Assembly: GCF_000018105.1 (NCBI RefSeq)
Contig: NC_009933.1
Location: forward strand, 30,001-62,000
Direction: 5' to 3'
Origin: Acaryochloris marina MBIC11017
GTDB lineage: Bacteria; Cyanobacteriota; Cyanobacteriia; Thermosynechococcales; Thermosynechococcaceae
Length of the DNA stretch: 32,000 nucleotides
Below, piece by piece: positions 5,486 through 31,373 of the stretch (its first letter is position 1; each line of letters opens with the position of its first letter). The position numbers and the translations under genes are program-made. The notes below the pieces were generated by a model. It was not told the DNA's origin. It did not search any database and saw only the letters and a list, made by a program, of their open reading frames with translations.

Positions 5486-5797
5486 ATGCTAAAGCCAATC
5501 AAAGTAACGCTGCTAGGCATTATGGCAGCAACGACAGCAACAATTGCCATCCCCCAAGCAAACGCTTACTCTTCTTTGGTTGGGCAACAGTCTGAAGCCA
5601 TAGAGCAGAATGATAGTTCACTCGTTGCCTCTCATCGCCGTTTCCGCAGAGGTCGTAGAGTTCGACGAATTCGCTGGCGCAGAAAGTGGGTTTGCTATCG
5701 ACGCCCCCATGTGTTCTATCGTCATGGACGTAAAATCGTGAAGTTCAAGCGTCATTGCTTCTGGAAAAAGTATCGCCATTCTGGCCATCATTTCTAA
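5486..5797 (+). CDS. small secreted, extremely Arg/Lys/His-rich protein
   Basis: The N-terminus looks like a signal peptide (MLKPIKVTLLGIMAATTATIAIPQANA|YSS). The C-terminal ~55 aa is RRFRRGRRVRRIRWRRKWVCYRRPHVFYRHGRKIVKFKRHCFWKKYRHSGHHF, with 2 Cys. Confidence 0.5.
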   Translation: MLKPIKVTLLGIMAATTATIAIPQANAYSSLVGQQSEAIEQNDSSLVASHRRFRRGRRVRRIRWRRKWVCYRRPHVFYRHGRKIVKFKRHCFWKKYRHSGHHF

Positions 5798-6778
5798 GTA
5801 GATACGGACTGAATTTACACCTTAGCTACGATTAACCCGCACTCCTCCCATATAGCGATCTGTGGACTGATCTAAAGGACTAACCCTGAAAGGGCAGTTC
5901 ATCGATTTTGGAGTGAAGATTTTGGATCGCTAGATTGAAGAAACAGGTGGCGGCTATGAACAGAACCAATCAGGACTTTAAAGAATTTCTATGGTCCTTC
6001 ATTTGAGTATTCGTTGCTATCCCCCAGTAAGATGAGCGCTCATCGGGTGATACCACTGCTCCAATCCCGTCTCATCCCCCACTACAGGATCAAAGAATGC
6101 ACGAATGACTGAAATTATCGTGTATTTGTGCCAGGGGAAACAGCATGTTTGCCACTCTAAATCGGACCGAGCTTGCCGAGGTGGCCGCAATATCCAACTG
6201 TAAGTCTTTGCAACATTGGACTTTAATGATCCTACAAATGAGGTGGTATGAGCCTTGGCTTTCAGTTGTGTTGAGCATTTGAGCTATTTCCCATCACCAC
6301 TGACGATTCATTACAGAAAGTTGGAGAAGTCATCGCCACACAACCATCAACAGTTTGTGGAGAATTTCTATGTTTAAAAACCCACCAGAACTCAATCTTG
6401 AGTACGGCATACTCTGTATAGGACTTCGAGCAGTGGTAAAACCTTTATTACTTTGAATTTTTTTACTGAACTTTCCACTGAATAAATCTGAACTTTTCAG
6501 GATTTTATCTGCCAAGAATATTGGCGATATTGAGGGCATCAAAGTTAAAGGAAACAAGCTAAACCATTAAATCTACTGGGTTACAGAGTTTACAACTTAG
6601 TTGTTGCCTCCTGGCAAACAACTCTTACCACCAAGCTTAGCCCTGACTTCAGTACTCAGTACTTACTCATCCAGATAACATTTCTGGTTTTCAAATGGCA
6701 GATGAGAAATGGTCTGCAAGCTTGTCATGCCTAATTTTTGATTTTTCACTCACATGTTGACTCAAATACTAAACTCCG

Positions 6779-7366
6779 ATGCTATTAGAAACATCTTCTT
6801 CAGCTCAAGAAATCATTGTCATCAATCTAGGCTTTGCATTTTGTGGTGGAGCAATAAAATACATTGATGATGCTTTTGATTCTAGTGATCATGGAAAAAC
6901 TTTAGCGATGATTTTTGCTCCAATTACAGGAGTTATATGTTATTTGCTCATAGCAACTGATATTGCAGCAGCGACAATTCTATTAGCTATTATGCTAGGA
7001 GTCGCCCTCAAAGGGAAAATCGATACAGTAGGTCATTTACTAGCATTAGCCATTGTTCTTTTACTTTTATATGTAAATCCTCCTGAAATCATGTTACTTC
7101 CCTGGCTAGTTTTAGGTCTCGCGGGTTTCGCTGATGAAATAGGGAACGATTTTGTTGACTCTCGGCCTAATCTCTTAAAAAGAGCTTCTTTTTGGAGTGG
7201 AACGAAATTCACCTACTTTTTTCTTGAATACCGTTGCTTCATGAAGGTGATGATGATAATTCTCTTCTTTATGAATATATTAAGCTGGCACTATTTAGTC
7301 GCTTTCCTGTTCTTTGATCTTGCATATCATCTTACGGGTACTTGGTCAGAACACTGGATAGCCTAA
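6779..7366 (+). CDS. polytopic membrane protein, unknown family
   Basis: 195-aa ORF with several long hydrophobic segments, in an AT-rich segment. Confidence 0.55.
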   Translation: MLLETSSSAQEIIVINLGFAFCGGAIKYIDDAFDSSDHGKTLAMIFAPITGVICYLLIATDIAAATILLAIMLGVALKGKIDTVGHLLALAIVLLLLYVNPPEIMLLPWLVLGLAGFADEIGNDFVDSRPNLLKRASFWSGTKFTYFFLEYRCFMKVMMIILFFMNILSWHYLVAFLFFDLAYHLTGTWSEHWIA

Positions 7367-7644
7367 GCCAATATTTACTTGGAACATATTTTGTTCCAGT
7401 AAAACTCTAAGTTATGCAATGAGAAGTAAGGACATCTAGAATACCTATTTCTCTAAATGTCCTTTAAAAAAACCGAAGCAACGTGATATTGCATAAAAGA
7501 CAATGACAACTATCAAAAAATTAGTTAATACATGAATAAAGACAACTGCAATAGTGAGCTATTAGTCATGCTCAACCATGAACTCTAAAGATAAGAATTT
7601 GGATTATAAATCTACTTTTTATATCACCAACCACATCATGCTTT

Positions 7645-8589
7645 ATGTCTAGAAATATAACGATTGAAGAGCAAGGTATAAGGTTAAGCATATTGGGCAA
7701 CTTCTTCATGGCAACCCTTGGCCTTTGTTTTGCTAGCTTATCCCACTCAGAAATGATTCTTCTAGATGGAGTATTTTCTTTAATTAATCTAGTTATTGCT
7801 TATCTATCTCTCAAGATATTAAGACGATCCAAACAGTCAAACGATTACTATAATTCTATTCCCCCAATTTATTTTGAACCATTGATAAACTTAGTAAAAG
7901 GCGTCATCTTAACTATTGTCTGCCTCTTAGCTTTTGGGTCTTCAGTAATTATTATCCTAAACGGTGGTCATGCTATATCTACAGGAAAAGCCATTTGGTA
8001 TGCACTATTGGCAACATTAGTCTGTATGACTATTGCGATCAAGCAAGGAAAAAGAGCAAACGCATGTAGTTCTTCACTCATTGAAGTAGATGCCAAAAGT
8101 TGGTTCATCGATGGTTTGTTGAGCGGAGTTGTAGTCTTAGTTTTTACAATTGTGTTTTTCTTGCAAAATACAACATTAGCAATATTCTTACCTTACGCTG
8201 ATCCTATTCTAGTTATTTTCTTGTGTTTAATAGTAGCTCCTATTCCTGTGGAGATTATAAAGGAGAACTGGCCTAAATTAGTAGGGGAAAAATATGATGT
8301 CCAGCTTGAATATAAAATCATTGATATTATAGACAAACATATTCCAAAGACAACAATACAAGACTACTATGTTAGTCATGGATACTTAGGTGATAAGCTT
8401 TACGTGCAATGTCATCTTTTAGTAATTGAAGAAATAAGTCAGAAGTTAAGTTTAGCCGAGCAGGATAAAATTCGTGCTTTTCTTTATCAGAAGCTAAGAG
8501 ATGACTTTCCTAGCCTAGCCATTGATATAAATTTCATATGTGATCCAATATGGGTTGAAAGAAGGATATTGCATGTGAGTAAAGCTTGA
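7645..8589 (+). CDS. cation-diffusion-facilitator-like membrane transporter (divergent)
   Basis: The layout is about six hydrophobic helices followed by a soluble ~90-aa C-terminal domain, as in CDF proteins. Helix 2 (SEMILLDGVFSLINL) and helix 5 (SWFIDGLLSG) keep only the Asp of the usual HxxxD metal sites. Confidence 0.55.
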   Translation: MSRNITIEEQGIRLSILGNFFMATLGLCFASLSHSEMILLDGVFSLINLVIAYLSLKILRRSKQSNDYYNSIPPIYFEPLINLVKGVILTIVCLLAFGSSVIIILNGGHAISTGKAIWYALLATLVCMTIAIKQGKRANACSSSLIEVDAKSWFIDGLLSGVVVLVFTIVFFLQNTTLAIFLPYADPILVIFLCLIVAPIPVEIIKENWPKLVGEKYDVQLEYKIIDIIDKHIPKTTIQDYYVSHGYLGDKLYVQCHLLVIEEISQKLSLAEQDKIRAFLYQKLRDDFPSLAIDINFICDPIWVERRILHVSKA

Positions 8590-8779: not shown

Positions 8780-9568
8780 TCACAATCCCAAAGCCAACTG
8801 CACTTGCGTAACCTCCTTAGCCTCTTGCGGTAGGGGTTCTGGTCTAGTATTTTTCGCGGGGCAATATTTCTGATACCCGCAGCGATCGCAATGCTGTCCC
8901 GCCACGGGTTTCCATTCCTGATCACATCTGAGCTTCATCGCCATATCTTCAATCAGAGACTGGGCTTGCTGGTGATGGTCAGGTGTGACCTCATAGATCA
9001 GTTTCTCATTAGAACGCAAGTAGATTAGACTCAGACGTTTGAGCGCTTTCTTGTAGATCTGTTCCAGTATCAGATAATAAAAACCCAATTGGATATCCAC
9101 GGATGGAGGAGGATTGACGGATTTACTGGTCTTGTAATCAATCAATTCCAGACCATCATCAATATAATCCAAGCGGTCATACCGACCAGACAGGGTAAAT
9201 TCGATGTTGCGGACTTGGAGGGTTGCCCTGACTTTTGTCTCTATCCCCAGCGGTTTACGGATTTGAGGAAGTGGGGCAATGTACCGCTCGTAGTAAAGCT
9301 GCAATGCTGCCCACCCCTCATGGATCTGCGTCGGAGTCAATTCACTGGTATGGTGCTGCCAACAAACAGCAAACCAGTCCAGGGAAGGAAGAGGGTAAGC
9401 GTAGTTCCAATCCTTGTAGACATTGGCTAACGCTGCATGGAGAGCATTGCCAAGCTTGGTGGAGCCGAATATGGTTGGTGAAGGTAATTTATGCTCATAC
9501 CTAAATTGATAGGATTTTGGGCACTGTCCGTAGGTTTTGAGCTTGGTGGCTGACAGGGAATAGGACAT
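8780..9568 (-). CDS. PD-(D/E)XK nuclease family protein, Cas4/AddB-like with 4-Cys cluster
   Basis: The protein has an N-terminal Cys (YGQCPKSY), the nuclease core GRYDRLDY...LELIDYKTSK, and C-terminal CDRCGYQKYC. Confidence 0.8.
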   Translation of the reverse strand: MSYSLSATKLKTYGQCPKSYQFRYEHKLPSPTIFGSTKLGNALHAALANVYKDWNYAYPLPSLDWFAVCWQHHTSELTPTQIHEGWAALQLYYERYIAPLPQIRKPLGIETKVRATLQVRNIEFTLSGRYDRLDYIDDGLELIDYKTSKSVNPPPSVDIQLGFYYLILEQIYKKALKRLSLIYLRSNEKLIYEVTPDHHQQAQSLIEDMAMKLRCDQEWKPVAGQHCDRCGYQKYCPAKNTRPEPLPQEAKEVTQVQLALGL

Positions 9569-12567: not shown

Positions 12568-13752
12568 ATGAAGTCCTCTAACATTGAGAGTATAAAATCC
12601 TCCCATTGCTGGAAAATAATTGTTGTTGATGATAAAGAACAAGTTCATGCCGTTACTCGTCTGGCACTCCAAAATTTTCAATATAAGCACAAATCTCTAG
12701 AGCTTATTTCAGCCTATTCTAGTAGTGAAGGGCAACAACTATTAGAGCAAAATCCAGATACAGCCGTGCTGTTGCTGGATATAGTCATGGAAAGAGAAGA
12801 TGCTGGTTTAGATCTAGTTAAATATACTCGTGAGAAACTCCATAATCGGTTTATTCGTATAATTCTACGGACAGGTCAACCATGGATTGCTCCCGAACAG
12901 TCCATTATTGAAGAATATGACATCAATGGGTATATTTTAAAGACTGAATTAACCCAGCACAAACTCTTTTGTTTTCTATTAACAGCAATCCGAAACTATC
13001 ACAACTTACTAACTGTAGAAGAGGCTCGTCAGCATATATCTGCCCAAAACCAAGAACTAGAGAACTCTAATCTCATTTTGGAAAAGAAAGTGCAAGAGTA
13101 TACCCAGATATTACAAAAACAAACTTTAGCACTTGTAGAAAATAATAAAAAGCTCGAATTAGAAGTTCAGGCTAAGCTCCATGCTCAACAAAATCTAGAA
13201 ATAATCAATGAAAAGCTTTTTGAGGCGAATAAGAAGCTCTCCTTACTTGCCAACCAAGATGCATTGACAGGTTTGGCTAATCGTCGTTATTTCGATGTGT
13301 ATTTGCAACAAGTTTGGGAATCTGCTCAAGAAAACAAGCATCCATTGAGTATATTGATTTGTGATATTGATTTTTTTAAGGGTTATAACGATAGTTATGG
13401 ACATCCAGAGGGTGATCATTGCCTTCAAAGAGTCTCCCAAATCATTCACCGAGTTGCTGGGAAATCCGAGGGCTTTGCTGCACGTTTTGGTGGTGAAGAG
13501 TTTGCTATAGTTCTACCCAATACCAACCTCATAGACAGTCAAACAATAGCTGATATGTTAAGGTCAGAGATTCATAACGCTCGTCTCCCTCATCGAGCTT
13601 CAACAGTTAGTGAGTATGTAACAGTGAGTATTGGTGTGACCTCGATACAATTTCAGTCAGATGGATCAATAAATGACTTGATCCTTCGGGCCGATCAGGC
13701 CCTCTATGAAGCTAAAAAACTAGGACGTAATCAGTTCGTTACCCTTCACTAG
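12568..13752 (+). CDS. response-regulator receiver / coiled-coil / GGDEF diguanylate cyclase
   Basis: REC features are VVDD, LLLDIVM (phospho-acceptor Asp), LRTGQ and YILK. A long coiled-coil linker follows. The GGDEF domain has the RFGGEEF active site and no RxxD I-site at the usual position upstream. Confidence 0.9.
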   Translation: MKSSNIESIKSSHCWKIIVVDDKEQVHAVTRLALQNFQYKHKSLELISAYSSSEGQQLLEQNPDTAVLLLDIVMEREDAGLDLVKYTREKLHNRFIRIILRTGQPWIAPEQSIIEEYDINGYILKTELTQHKLFCFLLTAIRNYHNLLTVEEARQHISAQNQELENSNLILEKKVQEYTQILQKQTLALVENNKKLELEVQAKLHAQQNLEIINEKLFEANKKLSLLANQDALTGLANRRYFDVYLQQVWESAQENKHPLSILICDIDFFKGYNDSYGHPEGDHCLQRVSQIIHRVAGKSEGFAARFGGEEFAIVLPNTNLIDSQTIADMLRSEIHNARLPHRASTVSEYVTVSIGVTSIQFQSDGSINDLILRADQALYEAKKLGRNQFVTLH

Positions 13753-13903: not shown

Positions 13904-14917
13904 TCAAATATCTTCGCCACTTGGTACTTCATCATGCACCTCATAGAATTCCTGCTCTGCCTTCAGCTCAATTCCTCGATCTGAATACCGGACAAAAGAC
14001 TGTTCCGAAGCATGACAGGTAATCCGCCGAGCCAGAACTGAATCCATGTCCTTCATCACCAGCTGAGTCGCTAGGGTATGCCGTCCCCGGTGCGGATGGG
14101 CATTCTCCACCTCGGCAATCTCTGCTATCGCCTTAAAGATCTTGTAGATGCCCCAGTACTGTAATCGCTGACCCTTACTGTTGTTGGAGTGAGAGACAAA
14201 CAACGGTGAATCATTTTCCAGAACATCCCCCTGTTGCTCTCGCCATTGCTTGTACTGGTCAATCGCTTTTCGAGCTTTCTTCAGCAGTGGCACGGTGCCC
14301 ACACTGTCTGCTTTAGCGACTCGAATGGTGATGCGCTGCCCGTCATAGTCCCCGACGTTTAGCCTGTGAATCTCCGATGCCCTCAGCCCATGATCAATCA
14401 GGTGCAGCAAGGCCCGATCTCGGAAGGCATGGAAGCCGCGATCGCAAATGGCTTGATATAGTTTATCCACTTCATCCTGGCTGAATTCTTGGGGCAGCAC
14501 TGGATCGGCCTTAAGCTTTTCTAGTAGCAAAGTTGGGTCTTTGGGGATGTAGTCTCGGACGGTCAGCCATTTGAAGAAGCTCTGTAATGCGGCCAAGTTG
14601 CGGTTAATGGTCGCGTTCCTTCGGAGTTGGCCCCGTTGATTGGGTTCCGTCTTCAGATGATTCTTGTACCGATCCAAATCCCTGGCTGTTATCTCATGCC
14701 ATCCCTTATCCGTCCAGTCCATGAACTGCTTCAAGTCTCGCTCGTATGCTTTGCGGGTGTTGGAGCTAATCTCGCGAGACCTCATAAACTCTCCCACTCG
14801 CATCCATAGCAGATCTGCTGGGGTGGTTTGAGGGGGGTGAGTCCGGGACCGGGCAGTATCGATGGGGGTAATGGCCTGGTCTGCCAATACAATGAGTTTT
14901 ACTTCGGGGACGGTCAT
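13904..14917 (-). CDS. tyrosine recombinase / site-specific integrase
   Basis: It has a SAM-like N-domain (NTRKAYERDLKQFMDW), the Arg-I box DHGLRASEI, HPHRGRHTLAT (H-x-x-R) and a C-terminal H..VRYS (catalytic Tyr region). Confidence 0.9.
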   Translation of the reverse strand: MTVPEVKLIVLADQAITPIDTARSRTHPPQTTPADLLWMRVGEFMRSREISSNTRKAYERDLKQFMDWTDKGWHEITARDLDRYKNHLKTEPNQRGQLRRNATINRNLAALQSFFKWLTVRDYIPKDPTLLLEKLKADPVLPQEFSQDEVDKLYQAICDRGFHAFRDRALLHLIDHGLRASEIHRLNVGDYDGQRITIRVAKADSVGTVPLLKKARKAIDQYKQWREQQGDVLENDSPLFVSHSNNSKGQRLQYWGIYKIFKAIAEIAEVENAHPHRGRHTLATQLVMKDMDSVLARRITCHASEQSFVRYSDRGIELKAEQEFYEVHDEVPSGEDI

Positions 14918-16309: not shown

Positions 16310-16891
16310 TCAATTCTTATTTGAAGGTTCTGGAGATTTTGGCTTTTCAGGTGCTTGTTTTGGTGCCTTTTTCAATAAATTGTTTTCATACAATATTCGA
16401 ATTAGAAATAAAAAAGTCACAATTCCTATCATTAATAAAGAAGGGGGTGTTAACCATGTCCAATGCCCCCACATCTTGTCAATGATGTGCCAAAGTAACA
16501 AAAACATTGCCAAGTAAGTCAATTGGTGTAGCTTTTTCCAATTCTTTTTTAGTTTTTTTACGCTCCAATCATTCGATGTGAAAGCTAGTAACAAGAAAAT
16601 AGTGAACGTAAAAATTCCTTGACTATAGATCCAATAGGTTTGAATATCTAGAAAGTCAATTTCTCTTTTTATAATCATCAAATATCCATGAACAATGGAT
16701 AGTATGAATGCAACTAAACCTAATAGACGGCGCTGCAAAAGAAGTTTTTTAGGGATGCCTGTTTCTTTTAGAGATGGAAAGACAATCCTTAAAATTGTAG
16801 GTAATAGGGTAACAACATAAAGCAATGCAGCCCCAAAACCTAGCCAATTTGCATAAGGTGGAGAATCAAGTATAGACATAGAAATGACCAC
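16310..16891 (-). CDS. ferric-reductase-like (MsrQ/YedZ-type) transmembrane haem-binding domain protein
   Basis: The protein has about six hydrophobic helices with conserved His in helices (SIVHGYLMI, KLHQLTY, LLLWHII), as in PF01794-type domains, and a Pro/Lys-rich tail. It lies 43 nt upstream of the WD40 gene on the same strand. Confidence 0.55.
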   Translation of the reverse strand: MVISMSILDSPPYANWLGFGAALLYVVTLLPTILRIVFPSLKETGIPKKLLLQRRLLGLVAFILSIVHGYLMIIKREIDFLDIQTYWIYSQGIFTFTIFLLLAFTSNDWSVKKLKKNWKKLHQLTYLAMFLLLWHIIDKMWGHWTWLTPPSLLMIGIVTFLFLIRILYENNLLKKAPKQAPEKPKSPEPSNKN

Positions 16892-19531: not shown

Positions 19532-21547
19532 CTAGAGCAATGACTCTAAGTTATTCCGGATAACCAAAGTGGTAGGATGCTCAGGACCCAAGGCGACCTC
19601 TGCGATACTTAAAGCTTGCTGAAAGTCAGAAATAGCTTCTTCATAACGCCCTTGGTTGTCGTAGAGGAATGCCAAGTTATTGAGGCTACGAGCGACATCG
19701 GGGTGTTCGCTGCCCAAGAGCTTCTGACTCATTTCTAACGCTTGCACATAGAGCGGTTCGGCTTCTGTGTATCGTCCTTGCTCGTAGTAGAGGAATGCCA
19801 GGTTATTGAGGCTAGTGGCAACAGAGGGGTGTTCGCTACCCAAGAGCTTCTGTCTCATCTCCAACGCTTGCACATAAAGCGGTTCGGCTTCGCTGTACCG
19901 TCCTTGGTTTTTGTAGAGTACTGCCAAGTTATTGAGGCTCGTTGCGACTAAGGGGTGTTCGCTGCCCAAGAGCTTCTGACTCATCTCCAACGCCTGCACA
20001 TAAAGCGGTTCGGCTTCGCTGTACCGTCCTTGTTTTTTGTATAGTAATGCCAGGTTATTGAGGCTAAGAGCGACATCGGAGTGTTCGCTACCCAAGAGCT
20101 TCTGTCTCATCTCCAACGCTTGCACATAGAGGGGTTTGGCTTCTGTGTATCGTCCTTGGTTGTCGTAGAGTGCTGCCAGGTTATTGAGGCTACGAGCGAC
20201 ATCGGGGTGTTCGCTGCCCAAGAGCTTCTTTTGCATCTCCAACGCTTGCACATAGAGCGGTTCTGCTTCTGTGTAGCGCCCTTGCTCGTCGTAGAGGAAT
20301 GCCAGGTTATTGAGGCTACGAGCGACATCGGGGTGTTCGCTGCCCAATCTCTGTCGAGTTTGTTCTAAGCACTTTTGTCTCCAGGGCAGAGCTAATCCAT
20401 AGTTCCCCTGCCCTTCATAGAATCGACTGATGCCAACATAGGGCCATGTCAATTCACCGTCATTTAGTGAGTCAATCCGTTGATTGATCAGTTCCTCTAA
20501 GTGAGGAATTTTTGCAGTCATCTGGGCAATCACTTCAGTCGTTAGACTGTAATCAATCTCTTGAGCTGCAACTACCATTCCTCTGCAATAGGCTGCTTTA
20601 AGAGATTCCCCCTGATCAGGACGCTGATGTAATTGAATCCGAAAGTACTCCTGAACAATTTGATGGAGCTGGTAAGTACCCTGGTCTACTCGTTTGAGTA
20701 AGTTTCTAGCGATTAAACCTTTATCTCTGGTGTCTTCTAAGTCATCTGGATCCTGTTCAGATAGGCAGCTTTCAACCAAGGTCCAAGGAATAGGAGCAAC
20801 CGCAAACATCCCTAGAAAGCAGGCCAGTTCTTCTTCTGTCTCACTCAACTCTACCCAGCTTAATTCCAACGCAGCAGCGACTCCAAACTGTGCGGTCATT
20901 CCTGATTCTCTTTCTGTCAGTGCTTTAGCATCAAGCCGCTTGGATTCAAGTCGCTTAATCAATTTATGGAGGGACCAGTCGGGCTTATTGGCTAGATACC
21001 GCCCCACTAACTCTAGTCCCAAGGGCAAGTTCCCCACCCATCTGCATAAGGCTTGGGCATCGTCGAGCTGAGGATCAATGCGCTTGGCTCCAACTAAGGT
21101 TCTCAGTAGGAATAAGGCACTGGTATCATTCAGTTCGGTGATGGAGAGGGGATTTACGGATAGACCTAAATTCTGACGGGTAGTGATTAGAACTTTATAC
21201 CGTGGGTCTGATGGCGGTAAATACGGTTCGATGGTCTCAAGGTCCATCACGTCATCAAAAATGATCAGCACTTTTCCAGCCGGCCATTGCCCCCAGATAT
21301 AACTCACTTGTTGGTCTTCATCGAGTCCATCCGGTAGAGCCAGTGCCAACTTGGTCCGGGCAAATTCGATAATTTGGGCAGCTAGCTCCTGGCCTTTCAC
21401 TCGCAGCCAGCAGAGTCCACCCAAATAATGACCCAGATTGAGCTGGGAGATGGCATATTGCAGGGCAAGTTCTGTCTTTCCGATCCCACCCATGCCTGCT
21501 AAGGCGGTGAGGGCTACCGGGTTGTTCTTTTGGAGGAGCTGGTGCAA
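19532..21547 (-). CDS. NB-ARC (AP-ATPase/STAND) NTPase with C-terminal TPR array; N-terminally incomplete as an independent ORF
   Basis: Motifs seen are Walker A GMGGIGKT, Walker B LIIFDDV, LITTRQ, GNLPLGL, then at least 7 kinesin-light-chain-type TPRs. The only candidate initiator is TTG 21547, directly before the P-loop lead-in. The frame stays open upstream to 21757 with no ATG/GTG/TTG (see findings). Confidence 0.85.
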   Translation of the reverse strand: MHQLLQKNNPVALTALAGMGGIGKTELALQYAISQLNLGHYLGGLCWLRVKGQELAAQIIEFARTKLALALPDGLDEDQQVSYIWGQWPAGKVLIIFDDVMDLETIEPYLPPSDPRYKVLITTRQNLGLSVNPLSITELNDTSALFLLRTLVGAKRIDPQLDDAQALCRWVGNLPLGLELVGRYLANKPDWSLHKLIKRLESKRLDAKALTERESGMTAQFGVAAALELSWVELSETEEELACFLGMFAVAPIPWTLVESCLSEQDPDDLEDTRDKGLIARNLLKRVDQGTYQLHQIVQEYFRIQLHQRPDQGESLKAAYCRGMVVAAQEIDYSLTTEVIAQMTAKIPHLEELINQRIDSLNDGELTWPYVGISRFYEGQGNYGLALPWRQKCLEQTRQRLGSEHPDVARSLNNLAFLYDEQGRYTEAEPLYVQALEMQKKLLGSEHPDVARSLNNLAALYDNQGRYTEAKPLYVQALEMRQKLLGSEHSDVALSLNNLALLYKKQGRYSEAEPLYVQALEMSQKLLGSEHPLVATSLNNLAVLYKNQGRYSEAEPLYVQALEMRQKLLGSEHPSVATSLNNLAFLYYEQGRYTEAEPLYVQALEMSQKLLGSEHPDVARSLNNLAFLYDNQGRYEEAISDFQQALSIAEVALGPEHPTTLVIRNNLESLL
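19592..20347 (-). repeat. six tandem 126-bp (42-codon) TPR-encoding units, highly similar at nucleotide level
   Basis: The unit is LGSEHPDVARSLNNLAFLYDEQGRYTEAEPLYVQALEMQKKL. Differences among the five full near-identical units cluster at unit positions 6, 7, 10, 17, 20 and 21, with minor changes at 26, 29 and 39-40. Confidence 0.85.
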
Positions 21548-21696
21548 TTCCAGCAGCGTTTGGTCACGACCGACAAATTCAACGACACCGCTGCGAGGGA
21601 GGTTATGAGGAGGACTTGCCTGCCGGGATGATGGTGCTTCTTGTCCCTGATATGGATGACTCTCCGTTGGTGGACTGTGCCCTGACGAAGAGGTGT

Positions 21697-21706
21697 CTAC
21701 TTTTTT
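21697..21706 (-). other. candidate -1 frameshift / homopolymer slippage site A_AAA_AAG followed by TAG
   Basis: The - strand reads ACA AAA AAG TAG. The + strand has CTTTTTT at 21700-21706 and CTA at 21697-21699. The NB-ARC-TPR frame is exactly -1 relative to the CHAT-TIR frame here. Confidence 0.5.
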
Positions 21707-22794
21707 GTCAGGGTCTCTACCGCCCTCCGTATTCCATTGACAACATCCAAGAATGCTTCATCGCGATTGGTCCATTGCGTTACAGGTTTCGCATTTTTCG
21801 GCAATCCCTGAAGTTTACTGAAGGGGGAACCTAACCAATCACAAGGACGCAAAATAATAGGAATGACTTGGGCTGTACCTTCATCATGGCGGGCAATCGC
21901 TCTTTGCATCTCAATGTCGTAGCAATAGTCAGACGCGATAAAGTCCGGGCTGACCAGTAGCAAAATCATTTGAGCGGATTCTAGCTTGCTGTCGATTTGA
22001 GATTTCCATTCCTCCCCTGCTTCAATCGCCCGATCATGCCAAGCTGCAATTTTCCCCTGGCGTTTCAGATTGGCAAGATGGGTGACTAACTCTTCTCGCA
22101 AATCATCGTCTTTATGGGAATAGGAAATAAAGACCTTTAAGGGGTCATCGGCGTCTGGAATCATGGGAGAAGGTGCGGGTGTTGGAGGCGTTTGAGCCTT
22201 GGGTTGATCCTGATCCTTAGTTTCCTCTGTAGTGGGCTTTTTGATCAGAATGGGGGTGAGATGTTCTTCAATGCCTTCCAAGCGGATGGCAGCACAACCC
22301 AACTTGAAGGCAAACTCCACATCTCGTCCAGAACCGAGGGCATCATAGAATCCCACGGCAAAGGAGATCGCCGCTTTATCCTGGATCGCCCGTTTCATCC
22401 CGATCACATAGGGAATATGTTCTGAGATGGCCTTTGCCTGCACCTCGGTATAGCAACCATTGAGGACCACACAGCGCAGTTGATCGGCAAACAGACTAAA
22501 CAGGTCTGCAATTGCTTCACCACTGACCAACTGGGTGTTGCCACTGACATCCTCAAAGACCAAGCCCTCATCCCCTTCCCCATGCCCTGAGAAATGAACG
22601 ATCTGGGGATTTAGATCCAGCATGGCCCGCTGAATATCACGGGGGCGAACTGCCAGGCGCTGTTCAAGCTGGAACTCATCTCGATGTTGTGCCCGCTTCA
22701 AACCCTCATCAATATCCCTCAACTCCTGATCCAATCGAAGAGGCTGAGTATCTTTGGGATTCGCAGCGAGAAAGAGAATGGTTTGGGCAGTCAT
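21697..22794 (-). CDS. CHAT-like (caspase-fold) domain + TIR domain protein
   Basis: The N-terminal ~190 aa has the His/Cys dyad context IVHFSGHG ... VVLNGCYT and a CHAT-like tail (YVIGM..I.D.AAI.FA.GFY.AL). A Pro-rich linker follows. The TIR domain reads KVFISYSHKDD...LLLVSPDFIASDYCYDIEMQRA. I prefer ATG 22794 (MTAQTILFLAANP), which aligns with the N-terminus of the paralogue at 26810; the ORF-track start is 22887. Confidence 0.85.
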   Translation of the reverse strand: MTAQTILFLAANPKDTQPLRLDQELRDIDEGLKRAQHRDEFQLEQRLAVRPRDIQRAMLDLNPQIVHFSGHGEGDEGLVFEDVSGNTQLVSGEAIADLFSLFADQLRCVVLNGCYTEVQAKAISEHIPYVIGMKRAIQDKAAISFAVGFYDALGSGRDVEFAFKLGCAAIRLEGIEEHLTPILIKKPTTEETKDQDQPKAQTPPTPAPSPMIPDADDPLKVFISYSHKDDDLREELVTHLANLKRQGKIAAWHDRAIEAGEEWKSQIDSKLESAQMILLLVSPDFIASDYCYDIEMQRAIARHDEGTAQVIPIILRPCDWLGSPFSKLQGLPKNAKPVTQWTNRDEAFLDVVNGIRRAVETLTKK

Positions 22795-22928: not shown

Positions 22929-25900
22929 TCATGAGATGACCTCCCCACCGCCTGAAAAGCTGGGTCCTTCTAGCCGCAGAAAGTAAAGCTGTCCCCCAGC
23001 ATCTCCAGCAATGATGGTGCGACCATCTAGGGCAATCTCACAACATTGAAATCCGCCTTCTCCGGTGAAACTCATCACTTCCATGCCCGTCGCCAGGTCC
23101 CACACCTTCAGGGTCTTGTCCCAAGACCCGGAGACCACGGTTTGGCCATCCGGGCTGATGCTCACGCCAGTGACAGAGTCAGTATGGCCTGTGAGGGTGT
23201 GCTGCTCCTCGCCCGTCGCCAGGTCCCACACCTTCAGGGTCTTGTCCCAAAACCCGGAGACCACGGTTTGGCCATCCGGGCTGATGCTCACACTCCTGAC
23301 AGAGACAGTATGTCCTGTGAGGGTGCGCTGCTCCTCGCCCGTCGCCAGGTCCCACACCTTCAGGGTCTTGTCACTAGACCCGGAGACCACGGTTTGGCCA
23401 TCCGGGCTGATGCTCACGCCATAGACAGAGTTAGTATGTCCTGTGAGGGTGCGCTGCTCCTCGCCCGTCGCCAGGTCCCACACCTTCAGGGTCTTGTCCC
23501 AAGACCCGGAGACCACGGTTTGGCCATCCGGGCTGATGCTCACGCCCTCGACAGGGGAAGTATGTCCTGTGAGGGTGCGCTGCTCCTCGCCCGTCGCCAG
23601 GTCCCACACCTTCAGGGTCTTGTCCAAAGACCCGGAGACCACGGTTTGGCCATCCGGGCTGATGCTCACGCCATAGACAGAGTTAGTATGTCCTGTGAGG
23701 GTGCGCTGCTCCTCGCCCGTCGCCAGGTCCCACACCTTCAGGGTCTTGTCACTAGACCCGGAGACCACGGTTTGGCCATCCGGGCTGATGCTCACGCCAT
23801 AGACAGAGTTAGTATGTCCTGTGAGGGTGCGCTGCTCCTCGCCCGTCGCCAGGTCCCACACCTTCAGGGTCTTGCCCCAAGACGCGGAGACCACGGTTTG
23901 GCCATCGGGGCTGATGCTCACGCCAGTGACAGTGGATGTATGTCCTGTGAGGGTGCGCTGCTCCTCGCCCGTCGCCAGGTCCCACACCTTCAGGGTATGG
24001 TCATAAGACGCGGAGACCACGGTTTGGCCATCCGGGCTGATGCTCACGCCAGTGACAGAGTCAGTATGGCCTGTGAGGGTGTGCTGCTCCTCGCCCGTCG
24101 CCAGGTCCCACACCTTCAGGGTATGGTCATAAGACGCGGAGACCACGGTTTGGCCATCCGGGCTGATGCTCACGCCCTCGACAGGGGAAGTATGTCCTGT
24201 GAGGGTGCGCTGCTCCTGGCCCGTCGCCAGGTCCCACACCTTCAGGGTATTGTCCAAAGACCCGGAGACCACGGTTTGGCCATCGGGGCTGATGCTCACG
24301 CCATAGACAGAGTTAGTATGTCCTGTGAGGGTGCGCTGCTCCTCGCCCGTCGCCAGGTCCCACACCTTCAGGGTCTTGTCCCAAGACCCGGAGACCACGG
24401 TTTGGCCATCCGGGCTGATGCTCACGCCCTCGACAGGGGAAGTATGTCCTGTGAGGGTGCGCTGCTCCTCGCCCGTCGCCAGGTCCCACACCTTCAGGGT
24501 ATTGTCCAAAGACCCGGAGACCACGGTTTGGCCATCCGGGCTGATGCTCACGCCCTCGACAGGGGAAGTATGTCCTGTGAGGGTGCGCTGCTCCTCGCCC
24601 GTCGCCAGGTCCCACACCTTCAGGGTATGGTCATAAGACGCGGAGACCACGGTTTGGCCATCGGGGCTGATGCTCACGCCCCTGACATTGGATGTATGTC
24701 CGCTGAGGGTGCGCACTAATGCTCCCCCCGCTTGGTTGAGGTGGGGGAATAGACACCGTATCCAGCACTCTTCCGGTCCCTGAGCTAAAGATTGAGTCAA
24801 AGCGGTCACATCCGGTGAGTCTTGACTCAACAAACGCCCATAGAGCTGACTGCGAAGCTGCTCAGGATGCTGATTTAAGACATGGCTAGATAACCGCAAC
24901 CCACTTTGGACGATGTTTAGGTCTTTGTCCTTGGGTAACGTTTCATAGTCCAATAGCAGCGCATTGATATCGGTGATTCTCAACTTGCGTTGCATCCAGC
25001 GATAATCCAAAAGTAATTGGCGTAACTCATCGGTGCGTTCTGCCTGCTTGAGGTGATGGGCCAAATGTTCATAGAAATATCCATCCTTCGGTCCCTTATG
25101 CCACCCTTCTAAACAGCTCTGCTGATAAGCCTCCAAAAGTTGCTGATGCAATGCCCCCTTGTTGGCCCGCTGGGCTTGTAAATAATCCTGCTGTAAGTCA
25201 TGGAGGCTGACTTGCCGCTGGGGATAGTCCCCCTCTAGCCGCAGCATGCCTTTCCTCGATAAGGTTGTTAGGATTTTGCCCGCATCTCGCTCCTTTAATG
25301 CTCCGGTATATTGCCATAGACGAACAATGACTGCTTCAGGAATCAATTCATCGGCTGGAAACACTGCCAGTTCTTGATACCGTTCTGCAGCGATGGGGTT
25401 GGTTTCTGCTAAGACCGTTGCACTGATATGCAGGGCTTTGAAAACATCGGGGTAGGGATAATGACTGAATTGTTCTTGGATAAATTCAAGATCTGAATCT
25501 TGTAAAGCACTGAGAACATGAGGCCAAGGGGTTAAATCCCGCACCATTGCACCGCATTGGGCTAGGGCTAAGGGCAAATTTCCACATTCTTTCGCTACCG
25601 CCTGGGCTTGGGAAGGCAAATCTGAGATGGGGACACCCACCCAGGCAGCTAATAACTCTAACGCCTGGTCATCGTTGAGTACCGACAGGGAAAAGTCAGT
25701 GGCCCCTAATCTTGTGATTAATCCTGAGTCACGGGTTGTTACCACCAAGGTACTTTGATGTCCCAGAACATTGAAGACTTCAGCATCAGCGATGCGCCAG
25801 ACATCATCTAGAATCAATAGACTTTGGCGTCCTTGCCATAGGATTTGAAGTCGATTTTTTCCTTCATTGATATCTTCAAATACCTGGCGTTCTCCACAGA

Positions 25901-26810
25901 GGGCTTCTGCTAGATCAGTTTGCTGGGCTAGCAGGTTTGGGTCTATCCCCACGGTCAGCCAGTAAATCCCATCCGGGAAGGCTGCTTGGGCTTGGGGGTC
26001 ATAGGCTAGGGCTGCGGCTAACACCGATTTGCCAATACCGCCCATGCCCTGGACACCAATGCGTTGCTGGTGCCCCGTCATTACTACGGGCTGGGCTAGA
26101 TTGTTGAGGACTTTCTCTCTCAGGGCTTTTAGGGTCTGAGGACGAGGTAAAAAGTAGGGGGGTAACTCTGGCACTCTCCAGAGTTTTTCAGGAGGGTGTT
26201 GTTCTGAAAAGGGTTGGATGGGTTCGGTATGAATACTGGATTTCTGGACTAAGACTGGGGTGTGGGATTCAGGGAAGCCCTCGATTTGAATGGCACTGAA
26301 TCCTAATTTAAAAGCAAATTCAATGTCTCGGCCTGCACCCAAAGCATCGTAGAAACCCACGGCAAAGGCCAGGGCCGCTTCATTGCTGATGGCTTGCTGC
26401 ATACCCACCACATAGTCAATATGTTGAGCAATGGCTTGAGCTTGCGCCTGGGTATAACACCCATTCAGAATTACGCAGTGGATATCTTCAGCAAACAGAG
26501 CAAACAGTCCGGCTAGGGCTGCACCTGTGACGAGTTGGGAGTTGCCTGCTTGATCTTCAAAGACGAGTCCTGCTTCTCTTTTGCCACTGCCAGCAAAGTG
26601 AATAATCTGAGGCGTTTCATCCAGTAAGGCCCGTTGAATATCTCTTACCCTTACAGCCAGGGAGGATTTGAGTTTGAATTGTTTTCGATGCTTTGACCGC
26701 TGTATCCCGTCTTCAATATCGCGTAATTCTTGGGCTGCTTGGCGCAATCCATCTGGGTTGCTGGCAAGGAATAGAATGGTTTGCTGTTCTGGTGGATTCT
26801 GACTCGTCAT
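22929..26810 (-). CDS. NLR-type STAND protein: CHAT-like domain - NB-ARC NTPase - helical domain - 14 WD40 repeats
   Basis: The N-terminal domain is paralogous to that of 21697..22794. NB-ARC motifs are GMGGIGKS, LLILDDVW, VVTTRD and GNLPLAL. There are 13 near-identical 42-aa WD40 units plus one divergent unit, enough for two 7-bladed propellers. Confidence 0.9.
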   Translation of the reverse strand: MTSQNPPEQQTILFLASNPDGLRQAAQELRDIEDGIQRSKHRKQFKLKSSLAVRVRDIQRALLDETPQIIHFAGSGKREAGLVFEDQAGNSQLVTGAALAGLFALFAEDIHCVILNGCYTQAQAQAIAQHIDYVVGMQQAISNEAALAFAVGFYDALGAGRDIEFAFKLGFSAIQIEGFPESHTPVLVQKSSIHTEPIQPFSEQHPPEKLWRVPELPPYFLPRPQTLKALREKVLNNLAQPVVMTGHQQRIGVQGMGGIGKSVLAAALAYDPQAQAAFPDGIYWLTVGIDPNLLAQQTDLAEALCGERQVFEDINEGKNRLQILWQGRQSLLILDDVWRIADAEVFNVLGHQSTLVVTTRDSGLITRLGATDFSLSVLNDDQALELLAAWVGVPISDLPSQAQAVAKECGNLPLALAQCGAMVRDLTPWPHVLSALQDSDLEFIQEQFSHYPYPDVFKALHISATVLAETNPIAAERYQELAVFPADELIPEAVIVRLWQYTGALKERDAGKILTTLSRKGMLRLEGDYPQRQVSLHDLQQDYLQAQRANKGALHQQLLEAYQQSCLEGWHKGPKDGYFYEHLAHHLKQAERTDELRQLLLDYRWMQRKLRITDINALLLDYETLPKDKDLNIVQSGLRLSSHVLNQHPEQLRSQLYGRLLSQDSPDVTALTQSLAQGPEECWIRCLFPHLNQAGGALVRTLSGHTSNVRGVSISPDGQTVVSASYDHTLKVWDLATGEEQRTLTGHTSPVEGVSISPDGQTVVSGSLDNTLKVWDLATGEEQRTLTGHTSPVEGVSISPDGQTVVSGSWDKTLKVWDLATGEEQRTLTGHTNSVYGVSISPDGQTVVSGSLDNTLKVWDLATGQEQRTLTGHTSPVEGVSISPDGQTVVSASYDHTLKVWDLATGEEQHTLTGHTDSVTGVSISPDGQTVVSASYDHTLKVWDLATGEEQRTLTGHTSTVTGVSISPDGQTVVSASWGKTLKVWDLATGEEQRTLTGHTNSVYGVSISPDGQTVVSGSSDKTLKVWDLATGEEQRTLTGHTNSVYGVSISPDGQTVVSGSLDKTLKVWDLATGEEQRTLTGHTSPVEGVSISPDGQTVVSGSWDKTLKVWDLATGEEQRTLTGHTNSVYGVSISPDGQTVVSGSSDKTLKVWDLATGEEQRTLTGHTVSVRSVSISPDGQTVVSGFWDKTLKVWDLATGEEQHTLTGHTDSVTGVSISPDGQTVVSGSWDKTLKVWDLATGMEVMSFTGEGGFQCCEIALDGRTIIAGDAGGQLYFLRLEGPSFSGGGEVIS
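23070..24707 (-). repeat. 13 tandem 126-bp WD40-encoding units, near-identical at nucleotide level
   Basis: The unit is LTGHT[SNDV][PSTN]V[EYTR][GS]VSISPDGQTVVS[GA][SF][LWYS][DG][NKH]TLKVWDLATG[EQ]EQ[RH]T. The rest of each unit is almost invariant. Confidence 0.9.
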
Positions 26811-28349: not shown

Positions 28350-31300
28350 TTAGGCTGCTGCTGGAGGGCGCAGGGCAATTAATTCTGATGCTCTTTTCTT
28401 ACCCAAGATGCTGGAAAGTTGGAGTTCTGAACAAGTCCAAACATCCTGACTTGACTTAACACCATTGTTTAAGAGGGCAAGATATTCACCACGGTACAGA
28501 CGCAAAGGAACCGACAGAAGCCCAAGAGCCTCTGTTGGGAGACCTACCTCAAGCTGCTGCTGCATTCTGTCTACCTCCTCATCAGAAGGATTATTCCCAA
28601 TATGTATCAGAGCAGCTAGCTGATGTGCTGAGCGTAAATAAAGCCGAGTTGCATCGGCAAATTTTTGGATATCACCATACCCAATTTTTCCTTGATATGG
28701 ATTAGGGGTATATAGCCGTTCTATCTCCTCGATGGCTACTCCATGCACCCAGTCCCAAAGCAATGAAGCACGTTTACACCTTGCAAAATAGTCAAGCTCT
28801 CCTTGTGCTAGGTGTTGCAGAAGTCTAACAACTTCAGTTCCATAGCGCTCTGAAGCTTGTTGAGGGCGGATAGATTCACTTCTGCCTTTCTTCATCATTG
28901 GAGTATAGCCACCATCTGACTCTGGAAGCTGCTGCAGAAGAGCGACCAATGTAATTACAGATAAATCATCAGTTTGAATACTACGCACTAAGCGGATTAG
29001 GCGCATGGCTGAGTCAAACGACAGAGCAGACTCACCAACGGCCCGACCGAGAAGAGTCAACTGAATATAAACATCCTCTTCTTCGATCAAGTCCTGTTCC
29101 ATCATTAACTCAATCAGTTCCTCCAGATGTTGTTTCATACGATCTCGCCAACTGGGATCTGAACGATTGGCAAGATACCCTCCATAGGTATTGGAAAGAA
29201 CAGCCACAATCTCAGCTCTTTGAACTCTCTCCATCTGTGCTAGCAATCTGACAAGCCACGTCTTTAGACTTTGTGAATCTAACGAAGATCGGATAGGCTC
29301 CAACTGCCCTTGAACGTATTGCCGGAACAAGCTCTGCCTTTCGTAGCTGTTGTCAGCCAGTAGAATGGCTTGCCCTCGTGAATTACTTGTATGTCCCGGT
29401 CTACCAGCACGCCCTGCCATATTCTTGTATTCAGCCACAGTGAATTGTCGTCCATCTTGGCCAACGAATTCATGTTCAGCCAATATTACAGTTGAGGCAG
29501 GGGTATTAATCCCTGCTGCAACAGTTGTTGTGGCCGATAGTACTCTGACCTGTCCATCTAGACTTCTGAAAGCTTGCTCAACGACTTCTTTCTCTTCCCG
29601 TGTCAAGTTGCGATTATGAAATGCAGTGCCCCCATGTAGGCATTCCCGGAGAGCTTGAGACGTTGTAGGAAGGTCATATTGGGGTAGGACTGAGATCGCT
29701 TCGGTTGCAGGAGACAACCCTAACTCTTTCGCCAGATAATTGGCACATCCTTGTGCTGGCCCTTTCTGATTACGAAAAACAATAACGTTCTCTCCCTGCT
29801 GCACTAACTTCTGGACCAATGGCACGATGACATCTTGACTACTCGCTTTTTTTCTTCTGACCTGTATTTCACTGGGAGAGAGAAGCTGAGTGACCTGCTC
29901 ATTTCCATCGGTATCAACAAACTGGAATATACCTGACCGATCTAGGGCACCCTCAACCAGCGGTACTGGCCGCTCTTGAGAAATTAATTTGTCACAGTCT
30001 AGCCATTCATCAAAATGGTTAACATCACCCACTACTGCAGAAAGAGTGATGAGCTGTATCTGAAAACCTCGCTGCTTGGCAGATAGAAGATATGTGAGCA
30101 GAAGTTCCACGCTTATTCCACGAGTTGGATCCGTTATAAACTGAGCCTCATCAAGGACGACTAGACCAAGCTGATTAAGCACCCCAGTATTGCTCACAAC
30201 CAAGTTCAGAAACATTTCGTAAGTCAGTAAGGCTAAATCGTATTTGCCTCGAACAAAGAGATCGGTTTGATCTACATAATCACCACAGCAGCGGATAACC
30301 CGCATTCCGAGGCCATCACCATACACTTGAGAGAACTGCTCATATTTTTCATTTGTGAGCGCTCGGTATGGAAGTAAAAATACAGCCTTACGGCCTTCGC
30401 ATATTGCCTGGATTGCAGCCAGCTCACCCACAAATGTTTTCCCCGAACCAGTGGGTGCGATCGCTAATAGTGATGAACCATCAAGAATTCGATAATCATT
30501 GATCGCTTGAAGCTGGAGGTCATTCAGGGTGGGAAACTGCTTGGCCCACTGGTTCAAGATTGTTAGGGGAAGGCCAAACCCGGCTAATTCTTGAATATCA
30601 GCATCTACTCTTAACCCCCCTTTTTGAGGGAACTTAGTATAGAAATGCGGCCCCGGTTTAATGGGTGGAAGAACCAGCCCTCCAGTAACATGGCCAAAGA
30701 GGACCGGAGTTTGCGCGATTCTCATCTTAATCGCAACGCTTCTGGCCTTCTCAACGACCTGGGCACTCATTTCTACTAAATCAATGGTCGGGGATGTTGT
30801 TTCTATGAACGTATCAATCAATGCCTTGGTGAGTAACCCATGCCCTTCACCAGGAACCTCATAAGCCTCTTCACTCTCCCTAGATGCCGCAAGTAATATT
30901 CTTCCCTCTCCAGCCAAGGTAGAAACGGACATGCTGATGCTCCTTGATACTGGGATATCTCCTAAAACTTTTGCTGGTGCCCCTCCACTAAAACAACAGT
31001 CAAGGATAAACAGCACTGCTTTAGCTTGAGTTTCCCGAAAATAGTGTGCTAGCTCCTCCATCGGGATTGTGGTGTCTGCTGGATCAGTGCGGCTCGTGTC
31101 ATGAGCCACGATTTGATGATTGGAAGTACCATGCCCCGAGAAAGAAAGGATCACGGTATCGTCTGAAGTTGCCGCTCCCAAAGTGGACTGCAGCAGTTGA
31201 CGAATTCCATGTAAAGAAGCGTCCTTATCGGTGATGAGTTTTGCTTGAATGTCAGGGATGGAGTCACTGAACAAGGCCCACAGTGCCTCAGCATCTCGTC

Positions 31301-31373
31301 TAGCACCTGTCAATTCAGGAATTGTGATGTCTGCGAAGCGATCTACACCGATAAATCCAGCCAGAAGAGCCAT
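28350..31373 (-). CDS. caspase (peptidase C14-like) domain fused to a Ski2/Hel308-like superfamily-2 helicase
   Basis: The N-terminal ~230 aa has ILSFSGHG (His) and FILDCCFSGG (Cys), the caspase dyad. Helicase motifs follow: I APTGSGKT, Ia LPYRALT, II VVLDEAQ, III LSAV, V ATTTVAAGINTP and VI YKNMAGRAGRPG. The C-terminus looks like a winged-helix/ratchet region (..IQLTLLGRAVGESALSFDSA..). Confidence 0.9.
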   Translation of the reverse strand: MALLAGFIGVDRFADITIPELTGARRDAEALWALFSDSIPDIQAKLITDKDASLHGIRQLLQSTLGAATSDDTVILSFSGHGTSNHQIVAHDTSRTDPADTTIPMEELAHYFRETQAKAVLFILDCCFSGGAPAKVLGDIPVSRSISMSVSTLAGEGRILLAASRESEEAYEVPGEGHGLLTKALIDTFIETTSPTIDLVEMSAQVVEKARSVAIKMRIAQTPVLFGHVTGGLVLPPIKPGPHFYTKFPQKGGLRVDADIQELAGFGLPLTILNQWAKQFPTLNDLQLQAINDYRILDGSSLLAIAPTGSGKTFVGELAAIQAICEGRKAVFLLPYRALTNEKYEQFSQVYGDGLGMRVIRCCGDYVDQTDLFVRGKYDLALLTYEMFLNLVVSNTGVLNQLGLVVLDEAQFITDPTRGISVELLLTYLLSAKQRGFQIQLITLSAVVGDVNHFDEWLDCDKLISQERPVPLVEGALDRSGIFQFVDTDGNEQVTQLLSPSEIQVRRKKASSQDVIVPLVQKLVQQGENVIVFRNQKGPAQGCANYLAKELGLSPATEAISVLPQYDLPTTSQALRECLHGGTAFHNRNLTREEKEVVEQAFRSLDGQVRVLSATTTVAAGINTPASTVILAEHEFVGQDGRQFTVAEYKNMAGRAGRPGHTSNSRGQAILLADNSYERQSLFRQYVQGQLEPIRSSLDSQSLKTWLVRLLAQMERVQRAEIVAVLSNTYGGYLANRSDPSWRDRMKQHLEELIELMMEQDLIEEEDVYIQLTLLGRAVGESALSFDSAMRLIRLVRSIQTDDLSVITLVALLQQLPESDGGYTPMMKKGRSESIRPQQASERYGTEVVRLLQHLAQGELDYFARCKRASLLWDWVHGVAIEEIERLYTPNPYQGKIGYGDIQKFADATRLYLRSAHQLAALIHIGNNPSDEEVDRMQQQLEVGLPTEALGLLSVPLRLYRGEYLALLNNGVKSSQDVWTCSELQLSSILGKKRASELIALRPPAAA

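Follow-up and report, generated by a model that had tools for sequence, protein, structure and literature searches.

A 32,000-nucleotide (nt) stretch of a 120,693 bp plasmid of Acaryochloris marina MBIC11017 (contig NC_009933.1, positions 30,001 to 62,000), called the window here, carries on its minus strand an open reading frame (ORF) for a CHAT-TIR effector, followed in the -1 frame by an ORF for an NB-ARC-TPR protein. Judged by its anatomy and by comparison with related loci, the region 19532-22794 is likely to be one translational unit, in which both ORFs are joined by a programmed -1 ribosomal frameshift of the IS3/dnaX type. A slip on an A_AAA_AAG heptamer was also the explanation favoured by the original prediction for this locus. 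It fits the comparative evidence best, considering the junction, the wobble positions, the hairpin, the selection on both ORFs and the missing start codon. This analysis demonstrated how the locus is built and conserved, that both its ORFs are under selection and that an RNA structure is predicted.

All features of the locus lie on the minus strand. The zero-frame CHAT-TIR ORF (21697-22794; 365 amino acids, aa) starts at ATG 22794 and its 3' end reads ACA AAA AAG TAG, giving the C-terminus ...ETLTKK. The slippery heptamer A_AAA_AAG (21700-21706, CTTTTTT on the plus strand) has the X_XXY_YYZ phase in the CHAT-TIR frame, and the zero-frame stop TAG (21697-21699) directly abuts it. The NB-ARC-TPR frame, at -1 relative to CHAT-TIR, stays open between 21757 and its stop codon (19534-19532). 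It encodes a Ser/Pro/Gln-rich linker (VDTSSSGHSPPTESHPYQGQEAPSSRQASPPH; 21605-21700) that is translatable only after a slip, a conserved NTPase lead-in (NLPRSGVVEFVGRDQTLLE; 21548-21604), an NB-ARC domain (20927-21559; Pfam NB-ARC, 4.6e-14) with the Walker A motif GMGGIGKT at 21473-21496, and an array of ~6-7 TPR_12/TPR_10 units (19535-20320; Pfam TPR_12, 1e-120), presumed to be the sensor. By its Pfam domains, in which NB-ARC with a Walker A motif precedes the repeat sensor, the protein belongs to the NB-ARC clade of the STAND NTPases.

A -1 slip on the heptamer would read ...TLTKK-VDTSSSGH... and give a conceptual product of 1,087 aa (365 + 722). This agrees, as do the Pfam domains, with the CHAT-TIR-NB-ARC-TPR protein of ~1,090 aa and the free 365-aa form that had been predicted. 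The conceptual sizes are ~120 kDa for the fusion, 40 kDa for CHAT-TIR and ~75 kDa for an NB-ARC-TPR protein started 3' of 21547. The transframe tryptic junction peptide would be VDTSSSGHSPPTESHPYQGQEAPSSR, and no start codon could yield VDTSSSGHSPPTESHPYQGQEAPSSR. AAAAAAG occurs 11 times in the window, versus 9.6 copies expected, so the heptamer by itself is not unusual; its significance comes from its exact position, phase and conservation, and not from its mere occurrence.

Homologous loci were recovered from PLSDB and by a genome scan; the source plasmid itself was not among the PLSDB matches. They were located on plasmids of A. marina S15 (L001, L004) and Acaryochloris 'Moss Beach' (L002, L003), in Acaryochloris sp. 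IP29b_bin.148 (L005) and in Acaryochloridaceae SU_2_1 (L012). Together with the window, L001-L005 make six Acaryochloris copies, and L012 brings the Acaryochloridaceae loci to seven. In 7/7 of them AAA AAG TAG ended the TIR ORF and the NB-ARC ORF was in the -1 frame. The alignment of orthologues suggested in the original prediction therefore revealed A6+TAG throughout and no in-frame A7. In L012 the NB-ARC domain is only 62% identical and the linker is unalignable (KKVESPQPEPEPRVEGDK...NNLPRSGVKEF), yet CTG ACA AAA AAG TAG is found unchanged at the junction. In pairwise comparisons of the six Acaryochloris copies, heptamer plus stop had a mean divergence of 0.000, versus 0.178 for the 150 nt that close the TIR ORF and 0.163 for the distal linker. 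By this comparison, a sequencing error and a recent mutation can both be dismissed as the origin of the conserved junction.

The codons around the slip site carry a further signature. The codon 5' of the heptamer is ACA, CCA or CTA, and GCA or TCA in metagenomic relatives, so that the residue is T, P, L, A or S while the last base is always A. Such NNA codons have a usage of 0.09-0.30 in these genes, with a product of ~1e-4. The Lys-Lys pair was encoded by AAA-AAG in 15/15 loci with the A-type junction, at an AAA usage of 0.45. This codon choice indicates that selection acts on the nucleotide sequence and not on the peptide.

Both ORFs are under purifying selection, as estimated from pairwise ratios of nonsynonymous to synonymous substitution rates (dN/dS, Nei-Gojobori). 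CHAT-TIR gave ratios of 0.14-0.24 and NB-ARC gave 0.11-0.33, and dS between copies reached 0.3-0.5. The 51 codons of linker and lead-in, a disordered stretch that overlaps the RNA structure, had values of 0.3-1.35. Past the slip point, the downstream ORF remains intact for 722 codons in the window, 890 in L001, 764 in L004 and 814 in L005. The linker is open and equal in length in 6/6 Acaryochloris copies.

The NB-ARC-TPR frame offers no plausible start codon of its own. There is no ATG, GTG or TTG between 21757 and TTG 21547, and the next start, ATG 21493, lies inside the Walker A motif. These sequence statements of the original prediction, including those on the ORF end, the heptamer and the -1 frame, were all correct. 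TTG 21547 is preceded by no Shine-Dalgarno sequence and is not conserved: L003 has TTA instead, and L012 has no counterpart, its first in-frame start being the Met within Walker A. The lead-in NLPRSGVVEFVGR is located 5' of TTG 21547. The uninterrupted fused homologues P0002 (...ENLPRSGVVSFVGR), P0004 (...ENLPRSGVVEFVGR) and P0009 have it at the corresponding position, and so do L006-L012. Because the lead-in precedes any start and TTG 21547 is lost in L003 and absent in L012, the NTPase cannot start alone. An independent start at TTG 21547 or ATG 21493 was consequently rejected, the TTG being unconserved, the ATG lying inside Walker A and the lead-in being 5' of both.

Current annotations present the locus as two separate genes, ABW33414.1 (365-aa 'TIR domain-containing protein') and ABW33413.1 (653-aa 'TPR repeat domain protein'). 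The latter begins at the Met inside the P-loop, and initiation at this annotated ATG 21493 would drop a beta-strand and the first Gly of the P-loop. RefSeq uses the TTG start instead, which gives 671 aa. With such two-gene annotations, in which the NTPase starts inside its own P-loop, TIR-STAND fusions would be undercounted by surveys of domain architecture.

Folding of the sequence 3' of the heptamer, another check suggested earlier, predicted a stimulatory hairpin at 21660-21692, with a lower stem CUCUUCGU/ACGGAGAG and an upper stem GGGC/GUCC. It begins 7 nt past the heptamer in the window and 6 nt in the orthologues. Divergence among the Acaryochloris copies was 7.7% in the hairpin, versus 16.3% in the rest of the linker. 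Ranked by energy among local 45-nt windows, the hairpin was in the top 5% in the window and in the top 0.4-5% in the orthologues. L012 has an unrelated 11-bp hairpin (GUCCUCAACCU/GGGUUGAGGGC) 6 nt past the heptamer, in the top 1.3%. In every lineage, among them the Acaryochloris type, L012, L016, L036 and L042/L061/L092, a hairpin of unrelated sequence was predicted to start 3-7 nt past the heptamer, with energies of -14 to -32 kcal/mol across loci; most were in the top 0.4-5% of local windows. At -1 frameshift sites of the IS3/dnaX type the usual spacing is ~5-9 nt. One metagenomic pair showed a compensatory change from C-G to U-A, limited to one group. A search of the junction against Rfam for a known RNA family gave only sub-threshold noise. 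The slipperiness of A_AAA_AAG is governed by the tRNA-Lys repertoire of the host; no tRNA genes were found in the window.

The same signal was detected in a metagenome scan anchored on the TIR domain, which yielded 80 loci, at least 20 of them in-frame TIR-NTPase fusions. A_AAA_AAG was invariant in the 7 Acaryochloridaceae and 8 metagenomic loci, and a stop (TAG, TAA or TGA) abutted the heptamer in every junction-type locus but L061, where it came one codon later. In seven scan loci (L015-L019, L044 and L036) the TIR ORF ended with NNA AAA AAG and then TAG or TAA, and a hairpin followed 3-6 nt downstream. The stems of L016 (12 bp) and L036 (10 bp) are perfect, both in the top 0.4%. Where the contig was long enough, the -1 ORF of L015-L019 and L044 carried an AAA_16/nSTAND-like ATPase; the -1 frame of L016 and L044 runs for ~60 codons and reaches no P-loop, and the contig of L018 ends ~80 nt past the junction. 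The junction of L036 is followed by a 1,084-aa NB-ARC-WD40 ORF. The C-termini of P0013 and P0024 are ...SLTKK and ...SLSKK. L015 (2324-3238 / 3211-5928), and L017 alike, also contain a second junction within the operon, at which a 305-aa -1 ORF overlaps by ~28 nt with a ~900-aa nSTAND1-type NTPase ORF.

Two further junction types were observed. L092, L042 and L061 have A_AAC_CCT in phase after an NNA codon, together with strong hairpins (top 0.6-2%). The -1 frame contains an NB-ARC ORF in L092 and L061, and the contig of L042 ends 40 codons past the junction. In L009 (~100-110), L010 (~539-550), L011 (~6019-6030) and L063 (~964-975), the ORF ends at an in-frame TAG (TGA in L010) directly followed by CTG(G/A)AGTCG; a TIR domain was detected on the preceding ORF in L011 and L063. 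The same frame resumes past the stop without a start codon in L009-L011, reading ...IPHNLPRSGVVKF and then NB-ARC-TPR, while the contig of L063 ends ~10 codons on. Here, programmed readthrough of a stop codon in a leaky stop-C context may do the same job as the frameshift. Another arrangement was seen in L024 and L025 (~4367-4400), where the TIR ORF ends at a TAA nine nt before the relic CAAAAAAGTAGA; this resembles a one-time frameshift junction that a premature stop has disconnected.

Several observations weigh against programmed frameshifting. In-frame GTG/TTG codons are present in the groups outside Acaryochloris, and independent initiation is possible there from the sequence. The hairpin energy is only moderately unusual in some loci, such as the window (top 5%), and not significant in L015 and L019. 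The stem pairs of the Acaryochloris hairpin are essentially invariant; no covariation was found in it and the alignment is hence uninformative. No Shine-Dalgarno-like stimulator was found upstream at a fixed distance across the loci: GGAGG is found in Acaryochloris at a distance of 17 nt and GGAG in L012 and L015 at 8 nt, with both position and sequence unconserved. Such a stimulator is present in dnaX and some insertion sequence elements and is not universal. We know of no proof that A_AAC_CCU is an efficient heptamer in bacteria. Some copies are also damaged. L003 has a second frameshift inside the NB-ARC domain (5708-6007, 5961-7922), L002 is truncated in the TPR array, and L012 comes from a metagenome-assembled genome (MAG) with 2.3x coverage. 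In L094 (5240-5420), which encodes P0024, TCA AAA AAG TAG and the 5' hairpin arm are kept, and the -1 ORF has 55 codons and no NTPase; an IS1 transposase nearby suggests a recent loss of the sensor half. The lesions in L002, L003, L012 and L094 represent either decaying family members or assembly errors.

The same lesions could be expected if the locus were the remnant of an old gene fission, with an inherited A7-to-A6 change that left only CHAT-TIR functional, or NB-ARC-TPR made separately from TTG 21547 or a non-canonical start. Such an origin would also agree with the two-gene annotations, with poly-A tracts being indel hot spots and with the existence of in-frame fused homologues. The original prediction had named uninterrupted in-frame orthologues as evidence for an error or recent mutation, and these were found only as distant homologues (46-55% identity, with a different junction), with none among the close loci. 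They indicate that the fusion architecture is functional, not that the window locus is broken. We consider a fission unlikely, since purifying selection acts on the downstream ORF (dN/dS 0.11-0.33, dS up to 0.5), which four lineages have kept free of interruptions for 722-890 codons. The NTPase would further have to be initiated 3' of its lead-in, either at a TTG without Shine-Dalgarno sequence that is lost or absent elsewhere, or at ATG 21493 at the cost of part of the P-loop. An invariant heptamer with its stop, conserved wobble positions and hairpins in unrelated lineages are unexpected of a neutral lesion. A recent A7-to-A6 pseudogene, as brought up originally, does not agree with ORFs that are intact and selected although dS between copies is 0.3-0.5.

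Slippage could also take place during transcription, with RNA polymerase adding one A at the A6 tract and the A7 mRNAs encoding the fusion. The proteins would be the same, with an identical fusion sequence TKKVD, and the slip site is a homopolymer in most loci. Even so, this seems rather improbable to us. A6 is, as a general rule, short for productive polymerase slippage (compare A9 in Thermus dnaX, and Shigella mxiE), the heptamer is kept in X_XXY_YYZ phase with a terminal G, and the hairpin has the spacing of ribosomal frameshift sites. Sister loci have A_AAC_CCT at the same place, and this non-homopolymeric site argues for tRNA slippage over polymerase slippage. Each of these points agrees better with tandem slippage of tRNAs. 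The least probable explanation, by far, is a sequencing or assembly error or a phase-variable A6/A7 switch through replication slippage. Homopolymers are a classic source of both, and A7 would be in frame. Both had been raised in the original prediction, and both are contradicted by the 15/15 A-type junctions, all with A6 and none with A5 or A7, in independent isolates, MAGs and metagenomes from different projects. An A6 tract is also shorter than those generally known to drive phase variation.

For programmed -1 frameshifting, we propose the following course. A ribosome on A_AAA_AAG would have its P-site tRNA-Lys paired with AAA and its A-site tRNA-Lys with AAG, with the heptamer 7 nt 5' of a stable predicted hairpin and UAG immediately after it. 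Ribosomes that stay in frame would terminate and release the free 365-aa CHAT-TIR effector. In a fraction, both tRNAs would shift back by one base and pair anew with AAA AAA, and these ribosomes would read on as GUA GAC... through the 32-residue disordered linker into NB-ARC and the TPR array, yielding the 1,087-aa protein. The slippage would be stimulated probably by the hairpin and perhaps by the adjacent stop. That slippage occurs, its efficiency and the role of each product are all inferred.

The domain families point to a function as a STAND/NLR-like conflict system. The CHAT-like (caspase-fold) domain of the effector (22318-22773) was detected with Pfam CHAT (5e-9), as a partial match to profile positions 82-255 of 289, and with PADLOC 'chat' (9e-26); its candidate His/Cys pair lies in HFSGHG...LNGCY. 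The TIR domain (21817-22134) matched Pfam TIR_2 (2e-17) and TIR (1.6e-8) and the ThsB1-type TIR of PADLOC (1e-61). A candidate for the catalytic Glu of the WxxxE-like motif, picked by eye only, is found in SDYCYDIEMQ. The TIR domain resembles ThsB1, but a Thoeris pair (ThsA/ThsB) was not found in the window: no SIR2 or SLOG domain of a ThsA partner (SIR2 or Macro plus SLOG) was detected in the 14 larger window ORFs, which were those scanned with Pfam. Ligand sensing by the TPR array would lead to oligomerisation of NB-ARC, and to clustering and activation of the TIR domain (as NADase or in signalling) and of the caspase-like CHAT domain. How much effector is free and how much is tethered to the sensor would be set by the recoding signal. 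Free CHAT-TIR may join the oligomer through CHAT-CHAT or TIR-TIR contacts, or may be shared with the adjacent CHAT-like-NB-ARC-WD40 sensor described below. The fused architecture itself is functional, because uninterrupted CHAT-TIR-NB-ARC-TPR proteins (P0002, P0004) exist.

More tentatively, and with somewhat more doubt than confidence on our side, bacterial NLR-like (STAND) conflict systems might share recoding at the effector/NTPase boundary as a modular design of general use. Recoding would operate by a -1 slip at A_AAA_AAG or A_AAC_CCU with stop and hairpin, and apparently by UAG/UGA-CUGGAGUCG readthrough in sister lineages. The stoichiometry of free and tethered forms would thereby be fixed, with free CHAT-TIR recruited by or shared between sensors. 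If true, recoding would be a third route for coupling effector and sensor, beside gene fusion and EAD/death-like adaptors (EAD, effector-associated domain).

The surroundings of the locus are a conflict-system island on the plasmid. Directly upstream, a 1,293-aa protein with in-frame CHAT-like-NB-ARC-WD40 architecture and 13-14 near-identical WD40 repeats is encoded on the minus strand (22929-26810). Its CHAT-like N-terminus is 59% identical to that of CHAT-TIR, with HFAGSG versus HFSGHG, so that Ser replaces the putative catalytic His. The tandem of both genes is kept in the four Acaryochloris plasmid loci L001-L004; in L003 the upstream CHAT/NB-ARC-WD40 gene is also split (396-1076 and 1124-4270). 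Further genes on the minus strand encode a conflict-system-like 1,007-aa protein with an N-terminal caspase (Peptidase_C14) and a DEAD/DEAH helicase (28350-31373), a PD-(D/E)XK / Cas4-like nuclease (8780-9568) and a tyrosine recombinase (13904-14917), and the plus strand encodes a GGDEF diguanylate cyclase (12568-13752). Opposite the WD40 and TPR arrays there are antisense ORFs of up to 557 aa on the plus strand (23046-24719, 20081-20368 and 19742-19951), which look like by-products of repeat periodicity and not like genes. A 193-aa ORF (16310-16891) was considered as a second split STAND gene and rejected, as it encodes an unrelated ferric-reductase-like membrane protein.

To our knowledge, if mobile elements and phages are set aside, few bacterial cellular genes have a conserved programmed frameshift, namely dnaX, copA, csoS2, cdd and prfB. 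In the literature on frameshifting in TIR, STAND, NLR and anti-phage genes, including the Atkins 2016 review, the GeneTack survey and recent STAND/Avs work, we found no prior report of recoding at the effector/NTPase boundary of bacterial NLR-like genes. If true, our reading would add a whole class of immune/conflict genes to the recoded bacterial genes. One mRNA would give free and sensor-tethered TIR/caspase-like effector in a hard-wired ratio, as a design principle of NLR-like systems. Whether activation needs untethered effector has a bearing on the way apoptosome- and resistosome-like assemblies switch on their TIR and caspase-like domains.

A close known parallel is found in OrfA/OrfAB of the IS3 family (IS911, IS150, IS3), where a -1 programmed frameshift takes place at A_AAA_AAG (known in part from Atkins et al. 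2016, PMC5009743). Heptamer, direction, downstream RNA structure and a zero-frame ORF ending close to the site are alike, and normal decoding gives a short N-terminal protein and frameshifting a fusion with a large C-terminal module, as proposed here. In contrast to IS3, the Acaryochloris locus encodes a TIR/CHAT effector and a STAND sensor, has no transposase, is not a mobile element and shares no sequence homology, and no conserved Shine-Dalgarno stimulator was found upstream. Escherichia coli dnaX, which makes tau and gamma, likewise has A_AAA_AAG with a hairpin ~6 nt downstream (in part from PMC3711429). There, as proposed here, one gene gives two products in a set ratio; however, the frameshift product is the shorter one in dnaX and would be the longer one here, and the upstream Shine-Dalgarno-like stimulator of dnaX is not evident here.

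Other systems resemble the locus in part. Phage tail assembly chaperones G/GT are made as short and extended forms in a fixed ratio, through a conserved -1 frameshift close to where a short ORF ends. As may apply here, both forms work together in assembly, although proteins and biology are unrelated. The in-frame cyanobacterial CHAT-TIR-NB-ARC-TPR proteins P0002 (Leptolyngbya sp. BL-A-14, 1,125 aa) and P0004 (1,132 aa), both with 100% query coverage, and the TIR-NB-ARC-TPR protein P0009 share the domain order, the NLPRSGVVxFVGR lead-in after a disordered linker and 46-55% identity across the conceptual fusion. They differ in being uninterrupted, with no KK-stop junction or heptamer at the TIR/linker boundary.

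Kaur, Burroughs, Iyer and Aravind (2020) reportedly described systems in which effector and NTPase are encoded by two genes and are coupled by EADs. The CHAT-TIR effectors and NB-ARC-TPR NTPases of these systems are homologous to those studied here, and a separate effector is brought to the sensor. Relatives of the window proteins include P0033 (CHAT-EAD1-TIR) and P0043 (EAD1-NB-ARC-TPR; EAD1 is Pfam PF19955), which are probably encoded on the same contig (both 17,202 bp). The Pfam search of both window ORFs gave no EAD match, and in contrast to a homotypic adaptor, coupling here would be covalent, by recoding. With plant TNL proteins and bacterial STAND-NLR-like proteins (Avs, bNACHT), the predicted fusion shares the N-terminal TIR, the central STAND NTPase, the C-terminal repeat sensor and the presumed oligomerisation. 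It differs from them in having TPR instead of LRR repeats, an extra CHAT-like domain and a full-length form that would need recoding.

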